IMG/VR virus record: IMGVR_UViG_2541047739_000012
DNA from: a virus
Taxonomy: Duplodnaviria > Heunggongvirae > Uroviricota > Caudoviricetes
Length of the DNA: 41,441 bases
Reading direction: 5' to 3' (one strand)
Under the pieces are notes generated by a model. That model did no database searches. It was not told the origin of the DNA and was given only the letters and a program-made list of their open reading frames with translations. The translations under genes were made by a program, and so were the position numbers. This document shows, piece after piece, positions 4,060 to 31,006 of the stretch; the stretch's first letter is position 1; each line of letters opens with the position of its first letter.

Positions 4060-4659
4060 TCAGAATTTATAACCGACACCCACGATGAAACCGTCAGTGC
4101 GCCAGTCACCACTGCCAGAACCTTCATAAGCAATATCAATGGCCACGGATTCGGTCGGGTTAAACTGCACGCCAGCCCCCCACGCCAGAGACGTGTTGCT
4201 GTGGCGACCGTCATCACTTCCGGTCAGCACATCGTGCGTTTTCCCCTTGTTGTCAGTTACGCGGAGATAATCCCCGGAGAAAGTCGACACACGGCTGTAA
4301 GCCACACCCGCCATCGCATACGCGCTGAACCATTCATTCACGCGTACAGACGGCCCCGCCATCACGCTGAACCAGCGGTTACGCACAGAATCTTCATGCC
4401 AGCGGGTATCGCTGTAACGGGTAAGCTGGCGATTCTTGTCTCCTGCATAGCTGAATGACGTCACCATCCCCAGCGTGTCCGTAAACTCATAACGGTATTT
4501 CACGTTAATCCCGTTCAGATCATCGCTGCCGGAAACGTTCGTCGAGGCATGAAGATAGCCCGCGCTCAGCGTGGACTGATGTTCAGACGCCCATGCAGGC
4601 GCACCGGATACGGCCAGACAGATGGCTGCGGACAAAATGGCGGCATAAAGTTTACGCAT
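4060..4659 (-). CDS. lom: outer membrane protein Lom (Ail/Lom family)
   Basis: 199-aa ORF with N-terminal signal peptide ([24 protein letters not shown]), beta-barrel-like alternating pattern, C-terminal ...GVGYKF; lambda Lom-like; sits between J and stf as in lambda. Confidence 0.85.
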
Positions 4660-4725: not shown

Positions 4726-7700
4726 TCAGCTGATACTGATACCTGCTGTGGATTTTTTCATCACCACAACCAGCAGATCGCTGATACTGGTTGTTGGTGT
4801 CCAGTTATTCGCTCCTGATGAAGATACGGTGAATGTCAGTGTCAGCGTCCCCTGTCCGGCAGGCATATCTATAACTGAGGAAAATACGCCCTGAGCATCC
4901 GTCGTGGACTGATTAAAAATCTCCTGACCATTGCGGGTCACTCTTAACCGGCAGGTTGAATACCAGTATGACTGTTGGTTATTACTGTTGAAATTCTCAT
5001 GCTTACCACCGCGGAATAACACTGGCGGTATCATGACCTGCCGGTCAAATTTCTGATCATCACTGATTCTTACCGTGATGGTGCCACTGGCATAACTGTT
5101 CGTGCGGGGGAAAGACTTGCTGACCGTTTTGACAATATCGCCTTCAATCTGATTGGCTGACAGTTTCCCCTTAATCTGACAGTTCTCATTAATCGTGACA
5201 TTGTTGAGCGTCCCGGAGTTCGCATTCACACTGCCACTGATATCCGCATTTTTAGCAGTCAGCTTTCCGTCCGGTGTCAGGGAAAATGCCGGAGGATTAC
5301 CGCCGCTGGTAATGGTGGGAGCCGTCAGATATTTCAGGAACACTTCATTCATGAATATCTGATCGCCCTGACCAACAAACATCGGCTTTGTGTTGCCATT
5401 CGCAGGATTAATCATCGCAATCCTGTCTGCCGCCAGCAGCACCTGACTCTGCATGCCGTCGGGGGTGTTCTCAATACCGGCACCGATACCCGCAATATAA
5501 AGGCGTCCGTCCTGCATCTGCTGCAGCTTCACTGCCCACATGCTGTTCAGGTTATTATTTGTATCAACCTGAACCTTCTGTATCTGCTGGATCGCTGCAC
5601 TCTGGTCTTCCAGTTTCTTATTGACGGTCTGTGTTATTTCATTGCTGACATCCGTTATGGACGTCCTGATTTCAGTCAGGTCAGGCGCAAGCTGACCGTT
5701 ATCAATCTGCGTCCACAGCTCCTGAGCCAGATGGGTTTTCCCTATCTCGCCTTTGAAAAAATCCAGATAGCCTGATGCATCATCACTCGGCTGACCGACA
5801 GCCTCCACGAATGCCGATTTGCCAACGGTGTTCACACTGCGAACGTAAAAATAATAATCATGGCCCGGTTTGATATTGATACTGGCGGCTATCCAGTACA
5901 GCGCCGTACCAAGATAACGCGCGCTGGTTTCAACCTGCCTGATATCGGCAATCCGCGTTTCCGAGAACCAGAACTCAAACTGTACCGTCGGATCATAAAC
6001 GGCAAGATGCGGTATGGCGGTTATCTGAAAATAGCCCGGCGTCAGCTCAATCCGCGACGGTGCTGCCGGTGCGGCAATCCGGAACGATACCGACGCCGGA
6101 TCGCCCTGCTGTCCCCACGCATTTACCGCCCGGACCGTCAGCGTGTAACGCCCCAGCGCCAGTTGCCTGAAGCGGTATGTGGTTTCCGTCGTCCGGGCCG
6201 TGCTGACCAGCCGCTCACTGCCGTCATCCGCTGTTACGGTCAGACGGAGCAGGAAGCTCACGCCCTTCACCACCTTCGGCGTGTCCCAGCGCGCCAGCAC
6301 CTGATATTCCCCGCTGTCTGCGGTGACTTCGGCGGTCAGGTGCTGCACCGCTGGCGGCGTGACACCATTCACCGTGCCGCTCTGGTCGCCGTCAAAGTGC
6401 GCCCCGTTATCCACGATGGCTTCTTTTTCCGGTACATGCTGCACGGCGGTGATGGCATACGTGCCGTCGTCGTTCTCACGGATACTCACGCAGCGGAACA
6501 GGCGCTGGCGCAGCGTCGGCAGCTTCAGCCCCCACACGCTGTATCCGGCAACGCCGTCAGGAACACGGCTCACTTTTACCTTCACGCCGTCGGTGACGGA
6601 CTGGACCTCCACGCTGACCGGATTGCCACTTCCGTCAACCAGGCTTATCAGCGTGGTACCGGAGGATGGCAGCGTGATTTCACGGTCGAGCGTCAGCGTC
6701 CGGGTCTGGCTGTCCACCGCCAGCACGCGCCCGCCGGTGCTGATACCGGCATAGTCATCATCGCAGATTTCAATGACATCCCCCGGTACATGGCGAAGCC
6801 CTTCCGCACCCACGCTGAAGTCCACGGTCTGCGTTTCCAGCAGTTCCGTTTTAATCAGCCACAGCCCGGCGCGGTGCGCCTGCCCCCGGCTGGTACAGCC
6901 AAAGGCATCCATCTTCGTGACGTTACGACCGTAACGGGCAATGGCCTGCGTATCTTCAACAAGCTCTGTCGCCGTCTCCCAGCCGTTATCCGGATCAATC
7001 CAGTTCACCTCAACGGCATTATGGCGGTCCTTCAGGGCGCTGAAGCTGTAGCGGAACGGCGCGCCATCATCCGGCATCACCACATTACTGCGGTTATAGG
7101 TCCACACCTTATCTGACTGTCGGTCCTGCACGAACGTCAGCGTCTGCCCGTTCCATACCGGCATACAGCGCATCGCCGAGCAGAAATCACTGAGCACATC
7201 CCACGCCTTGCGCTGTGTGGTCAGGTACGCATTACAGGTGATGCGCGGCTCCGTGCCGCCAAAGCCGTCCGGCACTGACTGGTCGCAATACTGGCCGATA
7301 ACATACAGCGCCCATTTATCCACATCTGCCGCACCAAGACGTTTCCCCATGCCGTAGCGCGGGTGGGTCAGCATATCCCACAGACACCAGGCCATGTTGT
7401 TGCTGTATGCCGGTTTTAACGTTCCGTCCCAGATACCGCTGTATTGCCGCGTCTGCGGGTTATAGTTCGACGGCACCTGCAGAATGCGCCCGCGCAGATG
7501 ATAATTACGGCTCACCTGCTGGCTGCCGAACTGTTCCGAGTCCACCTGCACGCCGACCAGTGCCGTGTTCGGGTAGCACTGTTTCACATCGATGATTTCG
7601 GTGTATGACGACCAGAGCGTTTTGTTCTGCAGCTGGTCTGTGGTGCTGTCCGGCGTCATCCTGCGCATCCGGATATTAAACGGGCGCGGCGGCAGGTTAT

Positions 7701-27875: not shown

Positions 27876-28931
27876 TCATGCTTTCCACTTCAGGACACCC
27901 GAATTTCTCGCGTGCATTAAAAAACGAATCAGCAACAACAGCTGGCTGCCGTGTTTTTCTTCAAAATCTTTTACCCCGGCGTGCAGTTCGTTATGACATT
28001 TACGGCACAGCGGAATAACAAACAAATCATCAGCCTTTGTTCCCATCCCTCCCAGTCCATGACCAATGATGTGATGCGGATCATCTGCCTGATTGCCACA
28101 CGTCATGCATTTCTGCGTTTTTACCCAACGCGTGTATACAGGCATCTCTTCCCGTTGTGATTTCTGGCGCTGGAGATACTGAGCCGGTGACTCCGGATCA
28201 ACGGCAATGCTGACCACCGTCTTTTCCTGTGGCGGGTTTTGCTGGTGGGCGTGAGGCAGCGGCGCAAGATTTTTTGTGCGCTGCTTCAGTATGCTGGCGG
28301 CGGTCTGCTCTCCCGGTACGATGTCGCTTTCACGGTACATTGAGCGGATTTTTTCCGCACGCAACCCCAGCGAACGACGTAATACCGCTTCCGGTAGCGC
28401 GTCCGCCACCTGATTGCGGACCGCCCACCAGGATAATTCAGCCAGAGATAATTCACGCTCCTGCGTACCGCTTATTGCGTGACCGATGACGTCAATCATC
28501 CATGCTGACAGGTTTTGATGAGCAAGTTGCTCGAGTGATTCGGATGTCTGGTCACGCAGCTGGTTGTCGCAGTGCCAGCACAACACCATTGCGCCGGTAC
28601 CATAACGGTGAATAACGGTTTCGCTGTGATGATAATCGCCGTGTGGCCACTGGCAGGATTTAATATGGCGCAACAGCCAGTCAGACAATGCACCAGCACC
28701 ACCAGCAGCACGAATTACCCGTGCGTTACTGAAAAACGGCAGCAATGTTTTGTCTTCCACCAGCGGCTGGCGAACGGCAGGAACGACCCCGGACGGCAGA
28801 TTACGCATGCTTTTCGGTTCCGGCTCCACCAGTACCCGGGTATTGTGAAATACCGGCATGGATTCACGGCCCGGCTTAACGACCACCAGCCCGAGTTCCG
28901 GTACCAGAACAGGTCGAAGTAATACCCGCAC
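27876..28931 (-). CDS. DUF968-like nin-region protein with C-terminal Cys/His motif
   Basis: 351-aa ORF (GTG at 28929-28931; alternative ATG 24 codons in); C-terminal CMTCGNQADDPHHIIGHG...CRKCHNELH resembles an HNH/zinc-binding module; gene order resembles the Qin prophage quuQ-ydfU block. Confidence 0.55.
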   Translation of the reverse strand: MRVLLRPVLVPELGLVVVKPGRESMPVFHNTRVLVEPEPKSMRNLPSGVVPAVRQPLVEDKTLLPFFSNARVIRAAGGAGALSDWLLRHIKSCQWPHGDYHHSETVIHRYGTGAMVLCWHCDNQLRDQTSESLEQLAHQNLSAWMIDVIGHAISGTQERELSLAELSWWAVRNQVADALPEAVLRRSLGLRAEKIRSMYRESDIVPGEQTAASILKQRTKNLAPLPHAHQQNPPQEKTVVSIAVDPESPAQYLQRQKSQREEMPVYTRWVKTQKCMTCGNQADDPHHIIGHGLGGMGTKADDLFVIPLCRKCHNELHAGVKDFEEKHGSQLLLLIRFLMHARNSGVLKWKA

Positions 28932-28932
28932 G

Positions 28933-29211
28933 TTACCTCCAGATGCGTTGCTGGAATGTGCGAGACGGACGCGGTGGGCGTTCAGAGTAAGGAAGCCTGA
29001 CGGAGATTATCCAGTGACGATAATCGAGGCTGAGGGCTTTCTTAATCTCGTATCCGTGTCTGCGGTAGCACTGAATTAGCCACTCGGCCTGCTCTTCAGT
29101 GCATGGGTCATGCTGGAACCAGTCAGATTTGAAAGTGCGGGAACGCCGCCCGTGCCTGCTGGCAAAGACGGCAGAATCATAAGAATTGTGTAATTTGGTA
29201 TCGTGCGCCAT
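28933..29211 (-). CDS. hypothetical nin-region protein
   Basis: ORF track 28933..29292; ATG at 29209-29211 (MAHDTKLHN...) gives 92 aa; stop abuts the next gene's start. Confidence 0.45.
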   Translation of the reverse strand: MAHDTKLHNSYDSAVFASRHGRRSRTFKSDWFQHDPCTEEQAEWLIQCYRRHGYEIKKALSLDYRHWIISVRLPYSERPPRPSRTFQQRIWR

Positions 29212-29283
29212 CGGTTGTCTCTGCTGGCGCAGCAGGTGCCAGTTGTTCAGGCTGGCGTGCGAATTGTAAACCAGAATGCCAGG

Positions 29284-29309
29284 AAAAAACAAAACCCGCC
29301 GAAGCGGGT
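29284..29309 (-). terminator. intrinsic terminator downstream of the lipoprotein gene
   Basis: Minus strand: stem ACCCGC / GCGGGT with TTCG-type tetraloop, followed by TTTTGTTTTTT. Confidence 0.6.
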
Positions 29310-29507
29310 ATGCTAAAACAAACTGAAAGTAATATACCGGACTTGTAAAGGAACGATAGAATAATTATTGGATTAAACCCTGACTCAATCCAGATTTCAT
29401 AGGCAACAACTACGGACTAATCATCACAGTCATGTTTGATAGGCTTAGTCCGCATTGGGTGAGGGTTTACGGCGTTTTCACTAATAATTTATCGTCCAAG
29501 CTATACA

Positions 29508-29900
29508 CTACTGCCCTGTTTTAACGAAGTTTTTAAAGGAAACAACTGCCTGATAGGGGTTTGGTTGACAGCCAAACATATTATCGCAAAAAGGCTTGAT
29601 GAAAATTCTTGAGGATCCATCTTCATTTGGCATTTTACTCACTTGATAAGCGAGGAATGGACTATTTGGAGAGGGATTATAAGTGGAAATTAGCGTGTCT
29701 GTCGCCGTTTGAATTTTCCATGAGGAATTATTAGCCAACCAGAATTGCGCTCGTTTCCAATAAAAGTCACATTGCTTTTCATCATTACATGTTAGTGGCT
29801 TCATTGCTTCTGCTTTCAACGCTGGATCGACCTTTGCTGCACACCCTCCCAACATTACTGTTGCAATCATTACACCTGCGACTAAAACAAGTTTCTTCAT
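29508..29900 (-). CDS. lipoprotein (moron)
   Basis: 130-aa ORF with signal peptide and lipobox (MKKLVLVAGVMIATVMLGGC), several Cys; strong SD GGGAG; bracketed by terminator-like hairpins and AT-rich intergenic DNA. Confidence 0.7.
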   Translation of the reverse strand: MKKLVLVAGVMIATVMLGGCAAKVDPALKAEAMKPLTCNDEKQCDFYWKRAQFWLANNSSWKIQTATDTLISTYNPSPNSPFLAYQVSKMPNEDGSSRIFIKPFCDNMFGCQPNPYQAVVSFKNFVKTGQ

Positions 29901-30043
29901 CTCCCTGCCCCATCAATAAAAGTTCGGTTCTCTAATAACTAGAGTTAATCAACGGAAAAAACGCCGAAGCGGGTTAAGTGCGGGTGCGTTGAGGATGCCT
30001 GACACATCAGAGGTGGCGAGGGATTTCTCCCCCGCCTGGTCTC

Positions 30044-30199
30044 TTACTCCTCAGGTTCGTAAGCTGTGAAGACAGCGACCTCCGTCTGGCCGGTTCGGAT
30101 TCGTACCTCGCAGAGGTCTTTCCTCGTTACCAGTGCCGTCACTATGACGGTTAAACAGATGACGATCAGGGCGATTAACATCGCCTTTTGCTGCTTCAT
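30044..30199 (-). CDS. hok: Hok/Gef-family type I toxin
   Basis: 51-aa frame MKQQKAMLIALIVICLTVIVTALVTRKDLCEVRIRTGQTEVAVFTAYEPEE; single TM plus the conserved RKDLCEV motif. Confidence 0.85.
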   Translation of the reverse strand: MKQQKAMLIALIVICLTVIVTALVTRKDLCEVRIRTGQTEVAVFTAYEPEE

Positions 30200-30256
30200 A
30201 GCCTGCTTCTCCTTGCCTTTCGGCACGTAAGAGGCTAACCTAGATTTGCCGTTCAT
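30044..30256 (-). CDS. mok: Mok-like leader frame (in-frame N-terminal extension of hok)
   Basis: 70-aa ORF from ATG 30254-30256 encompassing hok in frame, as for chromosomal mok/hok pairs. Confidence 0.55.
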   Translation of the reverse strand: MNGKSRLASYVPKGKEKQAMKQQKAMLIALIVICLTVIVTALVTRKDLCEVRIRTGQTEVAVFTAYEPEE

Positions 30257-30490
30257 AGATTGAGCCTCAGATTAATGTTAAGCGTCTTGCAGGACGCGTA
30301 ATGTTAACTGGGGCTTTTCTCTATCTGCCTTTTGGTGTTCATGCCTGAGACAGATAGCCTCAAGCACCCGCTGCAATTCTACTTAACTCTCCTTTTCCCG
30401 CAAACCGTTTTTATCCCCAGCGGCAAATCGAATACACCACCAGCGCCACAGCCATTGCGATTCCTGCCGTTGTAAATGCCTCAGGCCAGG

Positions 30491-31006
30491 TCATCGTAAA
30501 ACATCCTCCACGCTTATCAGTCCATTTCGTTTCAGGTAATCCATCGCCATCTCCGGTAATTTGCAGTCTGGATTAGCTTTTTTCAGTTGACTGACCAGTC
30601 GTTTAACCCACATTGTTAATTCGCCAACCTGATTACTGGATGCTAGTGGATTGTCGGCTTTACCCAGAATGACAGCACAGCAGGCCTCTTTGAGTACCCA
30701 ATCAACAGCATCTTTCCATGCTCCTGTTTCGACTGGTGGATTCTCACGCTTTACCTGTTCATAAAAGCGCACGGCTTTAACCAGTCCTTCTGATATCACA
30801 GGGACTGGCGGGGTAGTGAATAAGGCCTGAATCTCATAGCCCGGCCTGTCGTTGCACCCCTCTTTTGTCGGTACATATTTCCAGTCACCAACCCACATCT
30901 TCTCCTGAAAGTCCGTAACGCCTTTTTTCACGTAGCGATATCGCCATGCAACTGGTTTTGCCTGCCCTGCCGTTTCATGCCCTTCCTGATAATTAATCTC
31001 GCTCAT
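30491..31006 (-). CDS. hypothetical early protein
   Basis: 171-aa ORF (MSEINYQEG...), ATG overlaps the upstream stop (ATGA); no motif recognised. Confidence 0.55.
   Translation of the reverse strand: MSEINYQEGHETAGQAKPVAWRYRYVKKGVTDFQEKMWVGDWKYVPTKEGCNDRPGYEIQALFTTPPVPVISEGLVKAVRFYEQVKRENPPVETGAWKDAVDWVLKEACCAVILGKADNPLASSNQVGELTMWVKRLVSQLKKANPDCKLPEMAMDYLKRNGLISVEDVLR

Follow-up and report, generated by a model that had tools for sequence, protein, structure and literature searches.

How does a solitary lipoprotein gene come to lie in the nin region of a lambdoid prophage, how is it expressed there, and what might its product do for the cell that carries it? We address these questions for a window of 41,441 nucleotides (the whole stretch of viral DNA that was analysed; Caudoviricetes, IMG/VR record IMGVR_UViG_2541047739_000012), which is a complete lambdoid prophage. 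From the replication genes through Q, all of its genes are on the minus strand, and the cassette with the lipoprotein gene sits in the nin region. The order of transcription is a hok/sok type I toxin-antitoxin locus (30369-29975), the lipoprotein gene (29900-29508), a rem-like gene (29211-28933), ydfU, rusA and Q. The explanation that we favor, with a probability of about 0.6 when taken as a whole, is that the gene is a single-gene moron that was captured at the hok terminator, is expressed by read-through, and confers a prophage-encoded envelope trait. The trait is probably interference with other tailed phages at the outer membrane or in the periplasm.

A 665-bp Insertion at the hok/sok Locus

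The cassette is 665 bp long and holds one gene. Closely related phages lack exactly this segment. The empty site is seen in phage Evi, where the hok 3' region continues through ACCCGCTTCGGCGGGTTTTGTTTTTTCCTGGCATT into the rem-like gene, with flanks that are nearly identical on both sides. Among deposited phages, three records (Evi and two more) have both flanks and no insert, and two have the insert. The sequence-only reading had described the gene as flanked by AT-rich DNA, and the cassette is indeed AT-rich: its G+C content (29310-29954) is 0.394, whereas rem/ydfU has 0.538, the hok locus 0.519, and the window 0.507. The gene is present in 255 of 5426 complete E. coli genomes (4.7%), always at 95% identity or more, and in the same hok/rem setting in 254 of the 255. 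Parts of the flanks, by comparison, are found in 4580 of the 5426 (84%), so that roughly 4300 genomes possess the flanks and lack the cassette. Two of 50,697 deposited phage genomes carry the gene, vB_EcoS-689R5 and vB_EcoM-606R7; at least some carriers are therefore recoverable phages.

Morons, as defined by Juhala and Hendrix (summarized in PMC3594210), are recognized by extra DNA that is absent from the same site in close relatives, by a differing base composition and by a terminator downstream, and all three were found here. The terminator is the resident one of hok; the relatives described below have terminators of their own. A further mark, a promoter belonging to the gene, was not found for the window copy at the level of sequence. 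The view that the gene is a moron or accessory gene is borne out by the empty site, the foreign composition, the carriage of 4.7% against 84%, and mobile relatives. Conservation as part of a core phage operon, which would have spoken against that view, was not seen. The comparisons thus support an accessory, moron-type lipoprotein gene rather than a gene of a core operon.

The ends of the cassette are marked by a 13-nt direct repeat (CGCCGAAGCGGGT, plus strand), with copy A at 29297-29309 and copy B at 29962-29974, 665 bp apart. The distal copy and everything beyond it are the same as the Evi terminator; in the proximal copy, the 3' half of the stem is missing. A hairpin followed by a U-run had been proposed on both sides of the gene, the upstream one as the weaker, and the proposal holds downstream but only in part upstream. 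The downstream terminator (29309-29284), which begins 198 nt past the lipoprotein stop codon and forms the right junction, has exactly the sequence that the hok terminator has at the empty site. Its folding energy is -13.1 kcal/mol (z = -3.1 against shuffled sequences), and a consensus scan finds it. Terminator-like sites in 28500-31000 are not above chance (one found, 3.1 expected), so that the credibility of this terminator comes from its own stability and its homology to the hok terminator, and not from enrichment. The upstream element (29974-29956) has a stem of 3 bp (CGC-UUCG-GCG) followed by U6. It is not among the hits of the terminator scan, and the 46-nt stretch that contains it folds at -5.5 kcal/mol (z = +0.25), no better than shuffled sequences.

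All 55 E. coli-type IMG/VR copies with a readable upstream junction carry the truncated proximal hairpin, which points to one ancestral insertion in E. coli that has since spread. A 56th copy (L016:1-331, IMGVR_UViG_2537561932_000021) has an insertion sequence (IS) in place of the upstream region from 10 nt before the ATG, so that both the hok junction and the leader are lost. The first open reading frame (ORF) of the IS, in opposite orientation, matches the transposase family HTH_Tnp_1 (E 1.3e-12), and the lipoprotein gene is otherwise identical.

The cassette may have entered by recombination inside the terminator hairpin of the phage hok/sok locus. On the simplest reconstruction, its own 5' hairpin, of the same sequence as the hok terminator, would have recombined with that terminator. 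The outcome would be the arrangement now seen: a 13-nt direct repeat, a crippled hairpin upstream, and an intact hok terminator downstream.

The 3' untranslated region (UTR) of 198 nt that separates the gene from the terminator belongs to the E. coli form of the cassette; within deposited phages, it occurs only in the two records that carry the gene. It matches no Rfam family, has no significant structure (fold z -1.6), and has no match elsewhere in the phage collection or in species-representative genomes. A 68-nt stretch of it (29440-29373, minus strand), which holds the 8-bp inverted repeat CGGACTAA...TTAGTCCG, is missing from the 606R7 allele.

Relatives of the Cassette in Tail Gene Clusters

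A word-indexed search found 16 relatives. They are 66-85% identical and come from Enterobacter, Pantoea, Phytobacter and metagenomic phages, and all are on the same strand as the tail genes. Their sites are spread over the junctions of lambda-type tail clusters: between the tape-measure gene H and M (L005-L007: an Enterobacter hormaechei prophage, a metagenome scaffold and a sequencing-run assembly), between M and L (L012, a metagenomic phage), between K and I (L013, a metagenomic phage), and between I and J (L009, L073, and L074, Pantoea ananatis). In three others, L008 (Pantoea sp.) and the viral contigs L071 and L072, the gene is part of a larger accessory insert upstream of I, which follows K in L071 and includes Arc/Ant-type genes in L008. 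In L010 (Phytobacter) it lies beside a gpM remnant.

The relatives share an architecture as well as a gene. A canonical terminator lies 30-60 nt past the stop codon in L005, L012, L013, and L009. A -10-like hexamer (TAGGAT, TATGAT, or TATCAT), mostly with an extended TG, is found 33-39 nt before the start codon; the extended form is usually TGnTAGGAT, and TGGTATGAT in L012. A -35-like element (TTGCCG, TTGCGT, or TTGTCA) lies 15-16 nt upstream of the hexamer. Ahead of this promoter-like element, L005, L008, and L013 have an intact 5' hairpin with a U-run (-12.6 to -15.3 kcal/mol), which in L008 is ACCCGCTTCGGCGGGT, the same 16 nt as in the hok terminator. The occurrence of relatives as single-gene units at no fewer than four tail-tip junctions, each with such elements, supports the reading of the gene as a moron.

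L008 holds a second small gene (5374-5721 of that Pantoea sp. prophage locus), which overlaps the stop codon of the homologue. Its product has a lipoprotein-like signal (MKKILIALCMIGMVGC) and no Pfam match. Together with the homologue it makes up an accessory unit of two lipoproteins, which lies upstream of I and J in the tail cluster.

The Lipoprotein and Its Family

The ORF of 130 codons with lipobox LGGC, as first read from the sequence, is present. Its translation begins MKKLVLVAGVMIATVMLGGCAAK, and the N-terminus (MKKLVLVAGVMIATVMLGGC) has a lysine-rich n-region, a hydrophobic core, the lipobox with its cysteine at residue 20, and alanine at +2. A lipobox was scored as [LVI][ASTVIG][GAS]C with the cysteine at residues 15-35, and the charged n-region, the h-region, the lipobox and a cysteine in that range were all found. 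In homologues, the lipobox is L[SGVT][GA]C with an invariant cysteine. By these sequence features, the encoded protein is a lipoprotein of the signal-peptidase-II type. The +2 rule (alanine, not aspartate) predicts that the Lol system would sort it to the outer membrane.

Translation signals gave a mixed picture. The ribosome binding site had been called a strong Shine-Dalgarno (SD) sequence, and the G-rich run GGGGCAGGGAG at 29911-29901 does form an anti-SD duplex of about -7 to -8 kcal/mol; its best part, AGGGAG, however, abuts the ATG with zero spacing, and the better-spaced GGGG yields only -4.7 kcal/mol. The run is kept across genera as GGGGATAGGGAnATG in an alignment of upstream regions.

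An exhaustive profile search places the protein in a family of 1141 cluster representatives at E ≤ 1e-3 (532 at E ≤ 1e-10), most of 125-140 aa. Besides the lipobox cysteine, four others are conserved in the mature domain (about 110 aa): C38, C44, C105, and C111. In the alignment of selected members the lipobox cysteine, C38, C44, and C105 are invariant and C111 is nearly so, a pattern from which two periplasmic disulfides are predicted. Known families do not account for the domain. Pfam gave no match at E ≤ 0.01 and, at E ≤ 5, one chance-level C4 match; NCBIfam gave none; PHROGs returned only families of unknown function besides a Cor match confined to the signal peptide. At relaxed thresholds, weak DUF6491 matches appeared in six of 42 members. 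A pattern and tblastn search of species-representative genomes found no homologue, and a literature search found no mention of WP_000737636 or of phage vB_EcoS-689R5.

The best of five AlphaFold2 (AF2) models has a pLDDT of 84 (range of the five, 51-84). Its fold matches, Flpp3 (DUF3568) and the N-terminal domain of BamC, are at 11-15% identity with Foldseek E-values of 0.013 or worse, and neither DUF3568/Flpp3 nor BamC matches the lipoprotein at the profile level. We take the resemblance to be generic because KA1 domains of eukaryotic kinases score as well.

A C-terminal PDZ fusion is present in 11 of 42 selected representatives, a selection biased to long proteins, and one PDZ-fused member lies in an ordinary chromosomal neighborhood. 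These fusions hint at an ancestral cellular role in the periplasmic binding of peptides or protein C-termini. Chromosomal relatives with the fusion include L076:5001-5666 and family members P0034, P0037, P0079, P0103, and P0114.

For pairs of E. coli alleles (dS about 0.1), the ratio of nonsynonymous to synonymous substitutions (dN/dS) comes to 0.12-0.19, and in comparison with the Enterobacter homologue to 0.11; judged by these values, the gene is clearly under selection.

Probable Expression from the hok/sok Transcript

The hok/sok locus upstream is a standard one. A toxin ORF, a sok/5' regulatory RNA and end pairing of the mRNA were all found: in minimum free energy (MFE) folds of the empty and the filled form alike, the 5' end of hok mRNA (GGGUGCUUGAGG) pairs with CCUCAACGCACCC at 29994-29982. 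Such pairing of the 5' and 3' ends is reportedly the known architecture of hok mRNA, from work in the Gerdes laboratory. At the empty site, the terminator directly follows the fbi-like element, and in the window the crippled copy takes that place. In having a 5' regulatory region, end pairing and a terminator, the locus is of the same standard hok/sok type as hokD of Qin and the 'MokW' locus of phage Evi. It differs from those of other lambdoid prophages in that its terminator, which ordinarily sets the 3' end of hok mRNA, is split by the cassette, with the proximal copy crippled.

The promoter-like element of the relatives has changed in the window. The aligned -10 at 29937-29932 reads TATTAG, compared with TGnTAGGAT in relatives, with the -7 T lost and TG changed to AG; the aligned -35-like element at 29958-29953 reads TTTCCG, compared with TTGCCG, TTGCGT, or TTGTCA. 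In the 165 nt upstream of the lipoprotein gene the best sigma-70 candidate has 7 of 12 matches, and a promoter scan finds none. The gene had been taken for an independently transcribed unit, and the sequence does not support that view for this copy. The picture of two terminators and independent transcription fits the relatives; in the window, as far as the sequence can tell, one terminator is a relic, the other is that of hok, and the promoter has decayed.

Exactly at the position of the relatives' extended -10, the window has a perfect palindrome, CTCTAGTTATTAGAG (5-bp arms, 5-nt spacer; 29945-29931, minus strand), which the variant alleles CTCTATTATCAGAG and CTCTAGTTATCAGAG retain only in part. 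It may be a protein-binding site, or it may be due to chance.

In a lysogen, read-through of the constitutive hok mRNA would be the most likely route of expression because both the upstream hairpin and the ancestral extended -10 are degraded. The transcript would end at the intact terminator (29309-29284), 665 nt on, and rem-ydfU-rusA-Q would thereby be shielded in the lysogen. During lytic growth, the gene, which is on the same strand as the PR-driven operon, would be co-transcribed with PR-derived early transcripts. A homologue of 46% identity also hints at expression in lysogens: it lies in the immunity region of a prophage, and its start shares 4 nt with the stop of a cI-like HTH_3 gene.

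Comparison with Known Envelope Morons

The cassette architecture of the relatives points to an envelope function expressed in lysogens, and their repeated landing in tail-tip clusters recalls HK97 gene 15, Cor, and Llp. Another homologue, 44% identical, lies in the accessory region of a different prophage. The role in superinfection exclusion that the sequence-only reading suggested is plausible by analogy with these systems but conjectural, and envelope-level interference with other phages is the single most likely role, although we put it at somewhat below even odds. A precedent for exclusion is HK97 gp15, the product of a tail-operon moron, which blocks DNA entry (Juhala et al., 2000; Cumby et al., 2012, as summarized in PMC3594210).

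Gene 15 resembles the present gene in being a single small envelope-protein gene of foreign composition that was added to a lambdoid phage and is absent from close relatives. Its place in the tail operon is shared by the relatives of the present gene, and both have bacterial chromosomal homologues. The two proteins, however, are unrelated in sequence, gp15 being an inner-membrane protein of the YebO family and not a lipoprotein, and the window copy lies outside the tail operon and has no recognizable promoter of its own. Cor (of phi80, N15, and HK022) and Llp of T5 are likewise small phage-encoded outer-membrane lipoproteins, and the relatives of the present gene lie beside tail-tip or receptor-binding genes. 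The mature domain of the present protein, though, is about twice as long; the Cor PHROG match is to the signal peptide only, no match to the Llp fold appeared among the top matches, and the carriers have no gpJ end in common. Bor/Iss of lambda is a further prophage-borne outer-membrane lipoprotein moron, of about 100 aa, and Bor is expressed in lysogens. In contrast to it, the present protein has no match to the Pfam Bor family, and its gene is found in the nin region or the tail cluster, that of Bor in the lysis region.

Weighing the Alternatives

Several points weigh against the explanation preferred here. Its recombination route is a reconstruction from the present sequences, and the proximal repeat copy can be described equally well as a hok terminator with a 7-nt deletion, GGAAAAAAC[AAAACCC]GCCGAAGCGGGT. 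On expression, the 606R7 allele has TATTAT at the corresponding position, 41 nt before the ATG; a non-canonical promoter could be at work; and partial or Rho-dependent termination may take place at the 3-bp hairpin with U6. On function, the gpJ C-termini of carriers are unrelated, gpJ of the window being about 30% identical to the others, which argues against a blocker of the Cor kind that fits the receptor-binding protein of the phage that encodes it. PADLOC-DB 2.0 (all models) gave no match at E ≤ 0.1, the match to Cor PHROG 1119 covers residues 1-44 only, which is the signal peptide (E 0.007), the fold matches are generic, and profile and fold comparisons found no homology to Cor, Bor, or Llp. 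Some of these points lend themselves to a different account of expression, in which the cassette is an autonomous unit with a promoter of its own in 29955-29901 and two functional terminators, transcribed from the repressed prophage independently of hok. Relatives do have the 5' hairpin, the extended -10 and the 3' terminator that it calls for, the 606R7 hexamer has five of six matches, and U6 after the residual hairpin could give some termination. The window itself argues the other way, with TATTAG, AG for TG and TTTCCG for TTGCCG, with 7 of 12 as its best promoter and none in the scan, and with an upstream hairpin that behaves like shuffled sequence and is crippled in 55 of 55 readable E. 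coli-type copies. We therefore regard autonomy of the window copy as rather unlikely and prefer read-through from hok.

What the protein does allows more than one answer. If it acts on the animal host or the environment as a fitness or virulence factor, in the manner of serum resistance by lambda Bor/Iss, then its outer-membrane type and prophage carriage, the presence of enteroaggregative E. coli (EAEC) 042, avian pathogenic E. coli (APEC) and clinical isolates among the carrier strains, the best fold match to Flpp3 (an outer-membrane lipoprotein of Francisella that has been called a virulence factor), and the existence of chromosomal homologues outside prophages, some of them PDZ-fused, would all be in keeping. 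Placement beside tail-tip and repressor genes, however, fits conflict between phages at least equally, the protein has no Pfam match to Bor/Iss, and bats, deer, poultry and wastewater are further sources of carriers, so that there is no link to a particular pathotype; we hold this role to be unlikely. Somewhat lower still we would place a role in the lytic cycle, whether as an Llp-like mask of receptor or envelope that keeps progeny from being wasted on debris or as an aid to the tail tip. In most phages from outside E. coli, the gene sits within the late tail operon and shares its strand, and the window copy is on the same strand in the PR-driven nin region, so that antiterminated transcription would express it lytically. 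The terminators and promoter-like elements of the tail-cluster copies nevertheless point to expression that does not depend on the late operon, a repressor operon contains a distant homologue, no Llp similarity appears in the top fold and sequence lists, and the gpJ C-termini differ among carriers. Decay is the least probable outcome, and a very improbable one: the gene would be a non-functional hitchhiker that lost its promoter on insertion. The degraded promoter and 5' hairpin, the viral contig with an IS 10 nt upstream of the ATG, and truncated or frameshifted copies (P0006, P0012, and P0013) are what such decay would leave, but a dN/dS of 0.11-0.19 (in the comparison with Enterobacter as well as among diverged E. 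coli alleles, whose dS is about 0.1), an ORF that 254 genomes keep whole at 95% identity or more, and an SD region kept across genera are not.

Interference with other phages at the envelope thus stays our preferred role. A bolder form of it, which we consider doubtful, is that the protein is the founding member of a lipoprotein family with which prophages set up a broad outer-membrane barrier to tailed-phage entry, directed at a step that lambda-type tail tips share and not at a single receptor, and that in E. coli its gene was captured by hok/sok as part of a bicistronic mRNA. A barrier at a shared tail-tip step would explain why the cassette has landed among H, M, L, K, I, and J despite unrelated gpJ ends.

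The Prophage Setting

The features of the locus and of the prophage are collected in Table 1. The rem-like gene heads a rem-ydfU(DUF968)-rusA-Q block, which the terminator parts from hok and the lipoprotein gene. A 119-aa form of the rem-like ORF, from a TTG start, was rejected in favor of the annotated one because the longer ORF would cross the terminator. A 37-aa ORF on the plus strand (29203-29316), annotated as 'mobile element protein' in the deposited phages 689R5, Evi and 606R7, spans the hairpin and was judged to be spurious.

Table 1. Features of the hok-lipoprotein-rem region and other parts of the prophage, in window coordinates.
Feature	Coordinates	Strand	Evidence or remark
hok/sok type I toxin-antitoxin locus, host site of the insertion	29975..30369	minus	Pfam, Rfam, RefSeq hokD in E. 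coli 042
5' regulatory/sok region	30369-30194	minus	Rfam sok RF01794, 112 bits (gathering score 59)
In-frame mok-like extension	to 30256	minus	
hok coding sequence	30199-30044	minus	Pfam HOK_GEF 3e-23
fbi-like 3' element CCTCAACGCACCC	29994-29982	minus	pairs with the mRNA 5' end in MFE folds
Crippled terminator copy, ACCCGCTTCGGCG + T6, left junction	29956..29974	minus	fold, repeat coordinates
5' leader: SD region, degraded promoter remnant, palindrome CTCTAGTTATTAGAG	29901..29955	minus	upstream alignment, promoter scoring, duplex energies
Lipoprotein coding sequence, 130 aa	29508..29900	minus	ORF list, family alignments, AF2 model
3' UTR, 198 nt, G+C 0.374, E. coli cassette form only	29310..29507	minus	composition, alignment with 606R7
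Intact intrinsic terminator, ACCCGCTTCGGCGGGT + TTTTGTTTTTT	29284..29309	minus	terminator scan, fold, Evi alignment
rem-like gene, 92 aa from ATG at 29211	28933..29211	minus	ORF list, annotations in L001/L003, PHROG 1212
nin-type region, ending in DUF968/YdfU, RusA and Q			Pfam matches for DUF968, RusA, Q
Integrase			adjoins tRNA-Ser gene
RecE-like exonuclease; cI-type repressor; replication genes			prophage parts
Four tRNA genes; lysis genes; head genes			prophage parts
Lambda-type tail cluster H-M-L-K-I-J; Lom; side tail fiber			prophage parts

Elsewhere in the prophage there are further candidates for accessory genes. Between Q and the tRNA cluster, two plus-strand ORFs, 25556-26437 (293 aa) and 26673-27104 (143 aa), have no Pfam match and are opposite in strand to all surrounding phage genes. 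The tRNA cluster itself (24950-25259, minus strand), between Q and the lysis genes, consists of Gly-TCC, Thr-TGT, Lys-TTT, and Met-CAT; the set at this place differs among related phages, being Gly/Thr/Met in 689R5 and Arg/Ile in an E. coli 042 prophage. A second, classical envelope moron of the same prophage is the gene for a Lom/Ail-family outer-membrane protein (4060-4659, minus strand; E 5e-119), which is located between J and the side tail fiber gene.

Implications for Phage Morons and hok/sok

As an instance of its kind, the gene is a well-documented but ordinary phage moron. Its product belongs to a large, widespread, and unannotated family of lipoproteins of phages and bacteria. The locus is of use as a case study because one small gene can be traced across at least six insertion sites, accompanied by its 5' hairpin, extended -10 promoter and terminator, and because its capture by a toxin-antitoxin locus seems to have come about through homology between terminator hairpins. 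If hok and the lipoprotein gene share a bicistronic mRNA, the fbi element would no longer be 3'-terminal, and the processing of hok mRNA and post-segregational killing could change. If read-through from hok is true, the locus would be a natural experiment on the need for a 3'-terminal fbi in hok mRNA. If a block of phage entry is true, a widespread family would join the short list of exclusion lipoproteins that act at the level of the envelope.

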